Under the pieces are notes generated by a model that searched no databases, was not told the origin of the DNA, and saw only the letters and a list, made by a program, of their open reading frames with translations. A program made the translations under genes and the position numbers. Shown piece by piece: positions 486-670 of a stretch of DNA of 64,000 nucleotides. This DNA comes from Escherichia coli (GTDB lineage: Bacteria > Pseudomonadota > Gammaproteobacteria > Enterobacterales > Enterobacteriaceae): assembly GCF_001677475.2 (NCBI RefSeq), contig NZ_CP015229.1; one strand, written 5' to 3'. Each line of letters starts with the position of its first letter. The first letter of the stretch is position 1.

Positions 486-670
486 AGCATCTGTTTTATT
501 TGTTACGTCGTTAGTCACCAGCCCTGACACTACGCAGCGAAAAAGCTGCTCAATGCCAGGGCTGAATTTGTTAAATATTTGTCCTGATCGATATGAGCGA
601 TTTTTGGTATTCTTTGCCCATGATGTTATGTACAACATGCTCCAGGATAACCCTGTAGTGGAGCAAAGAT

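Follow-up and report, generated by a model that had tools for sequence, protein, structure and literature searches.

A stable hairpin behind malZ of Escherichia coli as a possible leaky 3' end upstream of a strain-variable orphan gene

In part of the E. coli population the gene malZ is followed by an accessory segment which begins with a stable nested hairpin (HP1) and carries an orphan gene. Our tentative interpretation, the one we regard as most plausible, is that HP1 is the stem-loop at the 3' end of the malZ mRNA, that it is leaky, that read-through feeds the orphan gene, and that a further hairpin (HP3) closes the ribosome-binding site of this gene. The window, i. e. the whole stretch of 64,000 nucleotides that was analysed (RefSeq assembly GCF_001677475.2, contig NZ_CP015229.1), starts with the 3' end of malZ, followed by an ORF of 485 aa, acpH on the minus strand, queA and tgt. 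The locus is composed as follows.

483-485, plus strand: stop codon TAA of malZ, placed by the sequence and by the annotated malZ in matching E. coli records
486-2148, plus strand: AT-rich accessory segment of 1.66 kb between malZ and acpH, absent from K-12
486-670, plus strand: untranslated leader of 185 nt from the malZ stop to the start of the ORF, with 97% mean column identity across alleles
671-2128, plus strand: orphan ORF of 485 aa (Z0502 in EDL933, ECs0454 in Sakai), annotated as hypothetical protein
2149-2730, minus strand: acpH (ACP phosphodiesterase), convergent to malZ and the ORF

In K-12 only 4 nt separate the stop codons of malZ and acpH, and everything from 486 to ~2148 is missing. 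Thus the entire interval, the hairpin included, belongs to the 1.66-kb insert. Of 5426 complete E. coli genomes, 1127 (~21%) carry the insert, among them O157:H7 EDL933. All 1127 carriers have one copy per genome, without exception at the malZ-acpH junction. Its GC content is 0.29-0.42 versus 0.52-0.57 in the flanks. Being strain-variable, AT-rich and absent from K-12, the ORF is indeed an addition to the core genome, as the sequence-only reading of this DNA had supposed. A blastn search (E up to 10) yielded no second genomic copy of the leader in the 1127 carriers, and no match to the insert was found in phages. A plasmid origin was rejected, as both 'plasmid' matches are 4.9-Mb chromosomes misfiled as plasmids. 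In Salmonella and Citrobacter a gene for a 200-aa peroxiredoxin of the AhpC/TSA family follows acpH (L047 3083-3965; L049, L050); in Salmonella it lies between acpH and malZ. As this gene occupies the same junction, genes turn over at this small site across the enteric bacteria, and the label 'acquired gene' is fair. The value for annotation lies in a junction whose content differs: K-12 has no gene there, ~21% of E. coli have an orphan gene, and Salmonella and Citrobacter have a gene for a peroxiredoxin; the finding bears on no long-standing open question.

Several details of the locus differ between strains. The last sense codon and the stop of acpH are CTC TGA in insert-bearing alleles versus TTA TAA in K-12 (window 2143-2154 vs L001 787-796), and the AcpH protein ends in RKAL with or without the insert. 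As the end codons differ, it seems that the indel reaches on its right into the end of acpH. O55:H7 USDA5905 carries a natural deletion (L013 2499-2834) that extends from inside malZ to inside the ORF; the whole leader is gone and both genes are pseudogenes. In HS-02 the malZ-acpH interval consists of ~1.1 kb of near-pure A/T homopolymer runs (L014 1250-2300). The apparent partial leader of this strain was rejected; this poly-A locus has almost certainly arisen because long reads of the AT-rich insert were wrongly assembled. In the intergenic region between acpH and queA (window 2734-2858, minus strand), Rfam returned a weak match to V_AS5, a Vibrio antisense RNA, which with 35 bits versus a gathering score of 96 (E = 4.5e-05) is probably due to chance.

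HP1 starts 34 nt past the malZ stop, is 46 nt long and branched, and has a GC content of 0.59.

519-564, plus strand: HP1, nested stem-loop identified by folding, with an A-rich loop of variable length
519-526/557-564, plus strand: outer helix of HP1, 8 bp
528-529/554-555, plus strand: mini-helix of HP1, 2 bp
534-538/545-549, plus strand: inner helix of HP1, 5 bp

The outer arm CAGCCCTG (519-526) is exactly complementary to CAGGGCTG (557-564), and the inner hairpin is formed by GCAGC (534-538), GAAAAA (539-544) and GCTGC (545-549). The nested inverted repeat which had been described behind the malZ stop is therefore correct in all its coordinates. It also proved to be a stable structure when folded: RNA of 510-575 forms a single nested stem-loop of -26.4 kcal/mol, and dinucleotide shuffles of the same region reach a mean of -13.9 +/- 2.6 (z = -4.91), with none of 200 folding as well. 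The HP1 46-mer occurs once in the window with 3 mismatches allowed, an exact HP1 21-mer had no match in 100,044 species-representative genomes, and an Rfam scan of window 1-3000 (E up to 10) gave no match in 486-670. HP1 is a genuine, stable, single-copy RNA stem-loop.

Other identities of the element were considered and rejected. HP1 is no dispersed repeat or REP element, as it is present as a single copy in the window and at one place per genome in the 1127 genomes. True REP/BIME palindromes of the GCCGGATAAGGCGTT... type, direct and inverted, occur in the window at 8902-9022, 15038-15122 and 23024-23133 and are unrelated to HP1. Core sites of integron attC elements were checked for by eye and dismissed. 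A Xer/dif site was discarded as well: ATTTGTTAAAT (566-576) matches the XerD arm of the dif sequence in 9 of 11 positions, and an XerC arm is missing.

Of the two parts of an intrinsic terminator, HP1 provides the stable GC-rich stem-loop; an uninterrupted U-rich tract 3' of the stem is not present.

565-580, plus strand: interrupted T-rich tail AATTTGTTAAATATTT after HP1

Five of the first eight bases of this tail are T, yet it starts with AA and is interrupted. The tail score of AAUUUGUUAAAUAUU is 1.2 versus 2.1-4.7 in control terminators, and the d'Aubenton-Carafa-type score of HP1 is -42.8 versus +30, +24 and -10 for the three controls, which are textbook sequences. A consensus terminator scan called nothing at HP1. 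A U-tract is likewise missing from GUGACUAACG, the sequence behind the hairpin on the minus strand. The sequence-only reading, which saw no T-run after the hairpin and called intrinsic termination uncertain, was right in substance on the first point and justified in its doubt. HP1 is a strong hairpin, but as the other half of an intrinsic terminator is missing, it is not a canonical one. The malZ gene of Salmonella, by comparison, has a textbook bidirectional terminator behind it, AAAAAAGGCTCGC-ATTC-GCGAGCCTTTTAT (L047 3912-3940).

With HP1 as an insulator, the ORF had been expected to have a promoter of its own in 565-660. Two placements are relevant here.

568-573, plus strand: the -35-like TTGTTA pointed out earlier, with TATGAG (592-597) as the best -10 partner
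605-613, plus strand: best promoter-like match, an extended -10 TGgTATTCT with a weight-matrix score of 7.8 and an RNA start near 620 if used

The pair TTGTTA/TATGAG scores 3.6, and the window contains more than 13 placements of this level per kb of strand. A score of 7.8 is reached by chance ~2 times per kb of strand in the window, so that ~0.4 such matches are expected in 185 nt. A simple scan of 486-670, with 9 of 12 matches as the minimum, found no promoter site. The -35/-10-like hexamers described before are thus present as letters, but in the scans they do not stand out from chance.

For EDL933 a transcription start site (TSS) map is available, in which Cappable-seq was applied to four media in exponential and stationary phase in triplicates, resulting in 19,975 TSS (PMC10469882). 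In the coordinates of this genome malZ extends from 484499 to 486313, the ORF from 486501 to 487946 and acpH from 487967 to 488548. The TSS listed at the locus are 484466+, 484476+, 484508+, 485123-, 487331+, 487650- and 487948+, of which 487331+ is flagged as 'degradation' (PMC10469882). The leader (486314-486500) has no TSS of any class on either strand in the eight laboratory-media conditions (PMC10469882), a result which a silenced promoter would give equally. The TSS-free span reaches from 485123 to 487331, i. e. from the middle of malZ to 830 nt inside the ORF (PMC10469882, supplement). Likewise, the orphan gene (gene 2335) is missing from the gene-TSS table of the eight conditions, in which malZ, acpH and queA are present. 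With chance-level consensus and no mapped start, the promoter proposed for 565-660 finds no confirmation, and the start site of the ORF that TSS mapping was to deliver does not appear in the leader. Two of the listed starts lie further along (PMC10469882): an antisense TSS inside the ORF at ~1832 (minus strand; NZ_CP008957 487650), seen in 6 of 8 conditions, and a weak plus-strand TSS directly after its stop at about window position 2130, antisense to the 3' end of acpH.

RNA levels were taken from a strand-specific RNA-seq study of 11 conditions (RPKM, background ~0.14; PMC4048457). In these, malZ reached 46, 17, 7, 70, 25, 0, 8, 11, 6, 10 and 1, and Z0502 reached 8, 3, 1, 8, 5, 0, 1, 2, 4, 2 and 1. 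The two genes co-vary with a Pearson coefficient of 0.91 and a Spearman coefficient of 0.84 at a summed ratio of 0.17 (PMC4048457, supplement), a co-variation that rests on low integer values in 11 conditions. In LB with antibiotics both malZ and Z0502 are at 0 and acpH and queA are nonzero. Z0502 also correlates with acpH (r = 0.80) and weakly with proY and queA. The simplest reading, suggested by these values, is that the Z0502 RNA is attenuated read-through from malZ. Full insulation of the ORF by the hairpin, which the sequence-only reading had considered, finds no support in a Z0502 signal that tracks malZ at ~0.17 of its RPKM; the apparent read-through from malZ together with the lack of a mapped internal start is part of what that reading had named as evidence against itself. 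The step-down across HP1 could also come from lower stability of untranslated AT-rich RNA instead of termination. In the supplements of ribosome-profiling and proteome studies (PMC4765031, PMC5597208, PMC5098033), Z0502/ECs0454 is absent from the lists.

The remainder of the leader contains further predicted structure close to the start of the ORF.

593-658, plus strand: upstream ORF of 21 codons, in frame with the main ORF, without Shine-Dalgarno sequence, TAG stop at 656-658
623-638, plus strand: HP2, weak 5-bp hairpin AUGUU-AUGUAC-AACAU with one compensatory pair (U624-A637 to G-C)
639-664, plus strand: HP3, hairpin GCUCCA...UGGAGC identified by folding, with the whole Shine-Dalgarno sequence paired and invariant in the haplotypes
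660-663, plus strand: Shine-Dalgarno sequence GGAG, 7 nt upstream of the ATG

The GGAG lies where it had been noted before, with the ATG at 671. The region 615-673 folds into two adjacent hairpins, HP2 and HP3. With its flanks (636-667 or 634-673) HP3 has -11.6 kcal/mol (z = -2.9; 2 of 200 shuffles as good), and its GGAG is fully paired in both the minimum-energy and the centroid structure. Among the 91 contexts of a Shine-Dalgarno sequence plus ATG in the window, 10 fold at least as well as HP3, and at two loci only, HP3 included, is the Shine-Dalgarno sequence fully paired. The structure of HP3 is the same at 30 C (-13.3 kcal/mol) and at 42 C (-10.3 kcal/mol). An RNA thermometer of the FourU or ROSE type was rejected, as HP3 is too stable at 42 C and has no Rfam match (E up to 10). 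The upstream ORF ends within HP3 and its peptide is not conserved. Several haplotypes carry G658T, which changes the stop of the upstream ORF from TAG to TAT. Since the stop is removed by this exchange, a 26-codon N-terminal extension from the ATG at 593 is possible.

Variation was studied in 43 leaders. Of these, 12 come from complete genomes, 30 come from metagenome contigs for which the first 23 nt of the ORF served as anchor, and one is that of the window. Together they represent 16 haplotypes, 15 of which are distinct over 486-673. The 8-bp and 5-bp helices of HP1, and the whole of that of HP3, are invariant in the 15 haplotypes. As these helices never vary, the covariation test says nothing for or against them. 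In HP1 the loop differs in length (GAAAAA, GAAAAAA, GCAAAAAA and GCAAAAAAA); apart from this, only three unpaired positions vary, and there is a single mismatch, which affects the 2-bp mini-helix. In HP2 the pair U624-A637 is UA in 7 haplotypes and GC in 6, with unpaired intermediates in 2. Paired columns were not significantly less variable than unpaired ones, neither in HP1 (1 of 30 versus 3 of 19, p = 0.16) nor in the whole leader (4 of 58 versus 16 of 133, p = 0.21). Nucleotide diversity is 0.010 in HP1, 0.014 in HP3 and 0.033 in 565-637, and at third codon positions 0.038-0.048 in the ORF and 0.049 in malZ. For the leader as a whole it is 0.020 versus 0.024 in the flanking malZ. HP1 and HP3 together have 3 segregating sites in 74 nt versus ~10 expected at the density of the ORF (Poisson estimate, p ~0.01). 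This hints at constraint on the hairpins, but with so shallow a sample selection on the helices cannot be proven.

Sequence searches with the ORF in Pfam, NCBIfam, PADLOC, PHROGs and PDB gave nothing above sub-threshold noise, and among 1.84 billion representative proteins, searched exhaustively with HMMER, there was a single full-length cluster plus its fragments. All named matches are hypothetical proteins of E. coli, Shigella or Escherichia sp., and peptide patterns confirmed by tblastn revealed no copy in other species among 100,044 species genomes. A single-sequence AlphaFold2 model reached a pLDDT of 35.6 and is unusable. Most of the 1127 genomes have an uninterrupted reading frame, 485 codons long in DNA of 37% GC; it is frameshifted in O145 RM8995 and DSM 103246. 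Diversity, given for codon positions 1/2/3, amounts to 0.036/0.019/0.038 in the part 671-1500 and to 0.046/0.040/0.048 in 1601-2125, compared to 0.010/0.013/0.049 in malZ. Thus the ORF evolves almost without codon-position bias, which fits relaxed or diversifying selection. A 12-nt tandem repeat at window 1503-1598 encodes a stretch rich in Lys, Glu and Ala. The lengths of the homologues, 466, 469, 473, 477, 481, 485, 489 and 493 aa, mostly differ by 4 aa from one to the next, which suggests copy-number variation of the 12-nt repeat.

How could these observations fit together? In the interpretation given at the outset, we infer that the malZ mRNA has its 3' end at HP1, which would act as a leaky barrier and a block to 3' exonucleases, of the type found at Rho-dependent ends. 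About 1/6 of malZ transcription would continue into the orphan gene, which would have no own promoter that fires under laboratory conditions. Pairing of the Shine-Dalgarno sequence in HP3 would keep translation low, and the ribosome-free RNA would favour Rho-dependent polarity. For E. coli, Dar and Sorek (2018, PMC6061677) showed that the ends of Rho-dependent transcripts lie at stable stem-loops and that uridine content is reduced there; at HP1 both are found, a stable stem-loop and reduced uridine behind it. The mild excess of C over G reported downstream of Rho-dependent ends (PMC6061677) was not found downstream of HP1, where 565-637 has C10:G13.

Other interpretations of the same data have to be weighed against this one. 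The leader might hold a promoter of the orphan gene that is silent in laboratory culture, with HP1 insulating it from malZ. The silence could result from H-NS, which commonly silences AT-rich acquired DNA, or from the need for an activator or another sigma factor. The low GC content of the insert compared to its flanks is in line with this, and so is the ~6-fold fall of RNA across HP1. The best candidate, the extended -10 at 605-613, is the top-scoring placement of the leader, and a start at ~620 would create a 5' UTR of ~50 nt made up of HP2 and HP3, with the sole compensatory pair close to the RNA 5' end. However, a score of this height is within chance expectation for 185 nt, the scan for at least 9 of 12 matches remained empty, and the candidate -10 is itself variable (C612G in EDL933 and O145). 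Moreover, no TSS was mapped in eight conditions on either strand, and the residual Z0502 RNA tracks malZ. We therefore consider a silent promoter unlikely. That HP1 is an efficient Rho-independent terminator which ends malZ transcription completely is hardly credible. It is a GC-rich stem-loop directly past a stop codon with 5 T in the first 8 bases of its tail, but the AA at the start, the interruptions, the tail score and the d-score set it apart from terminators, the scan did not call it, and a branched hairpin of 46 nt is atypical. A canonical malZ terminator looks like that of Salmonella. In addition, Z0502 RNA is above background and follows malZ with no TSS of its own.

It is also doubtful, though in accordance with part of the diversity data, that the hairpins have no function today and came as baggage of the insert, e. 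g. as the terminator of a donor gene, so that their conserved look merely reflects a recent single insertion. The diversity of the leader is near that of malZ, and paired positions are not significantly less variable. The ORF has almost no codon-position bias, and in some strains it is disrupted by a frameshift or a deletion. No homologue of the ORF or of HP1 was found beyond E. coli and Shigella that would reveal longer-term conservation. Against this stand the stability of HP1 and HP3, each far above that of shuffles, the pairing of exactly the Shine-Dalgarno sequence in HP3, the deficit of segregating sites in the two hairpins, the compensatory change in HP2 and the fall of the RNA level across the region. 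At the other extreme, the leader could be a dedicated cis-regulatory RNA, with HP2 and HP3 as the parts of a translational switch. This would gate the orphan protein, which is restricted to E. coli, evolves fast and varies in repeat length, and HP1 would set the supply of malZ-driven transcription. The Shine-Dalgarno sequence would then be closed until an sRNA, a protein, or ribosomes on the upstream ORF (593-658) open HP3, and HP1 would determine which share of the maltodextrin-responsive transcription from malZ reaches the orphan gene. The support for such a switch is limited to stable hairpins and one compensatory pair, and we regard it as very improbable.

For the leaky 3' end, in turn, the consequence would be that Z0502/ECs0454 of O157:H7 seemingly has no active promoter of its own in culture and rides weakly on malZ transcription, with a ribosome-binding site that is predicted to be closed. 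If true, we would have here a neat case of a gene, newly arrived or newly born, that is held at low, host-coupled expression.

HP1 and HP3 can be compared with several known systems. Like a canonical intrinsic terminator, e. g. that of malZ in Salmonella, HP1 is GC-rich and lies directly past the malZ stop, but it has neither an uninterrupted U-tract nor an upstream A-tract, scores far below the controls, and shares no sequence similarity with the Salmonella terminator. With REP/BIME elements it has in common that it is an imperfect palindrome between convergent genes which could stabilise the upstream mRNA; unlike these it is present once per genome, and its sequence is unrelated. HP3, which pairs the whole GGAG with an upstream CUCC, resembles hairpins in 5' UTRs that sequester the Shine-Dalgarno sequence, such as FourU and ROSE. 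It differs from these RNA thermometers in that it does not melt between 30 and 42 C and contains no FourU or ROSE motif. Leaders activated by sRNAs, such as that of rpoS, are another kind of Shine-Dalgarno-sequestering element. In contrast to such leaders, the RNA that contains HP3 is apparently a read-through transcript and no dedicated mRNA, and no activator is known. Compared to the 3'-terminal stem-loops of Rho-dependent transcripts (PMC6061677), HP1 is longer and branched (46 nt) and is followed by C10:G13. It agrees with them in being stable, near a stop codon and without a proper U-tract, and in that the RNA past it is reduced and not abolished (PMC6061677). HP1 is a new instance of an ordinary, known kind of feature.
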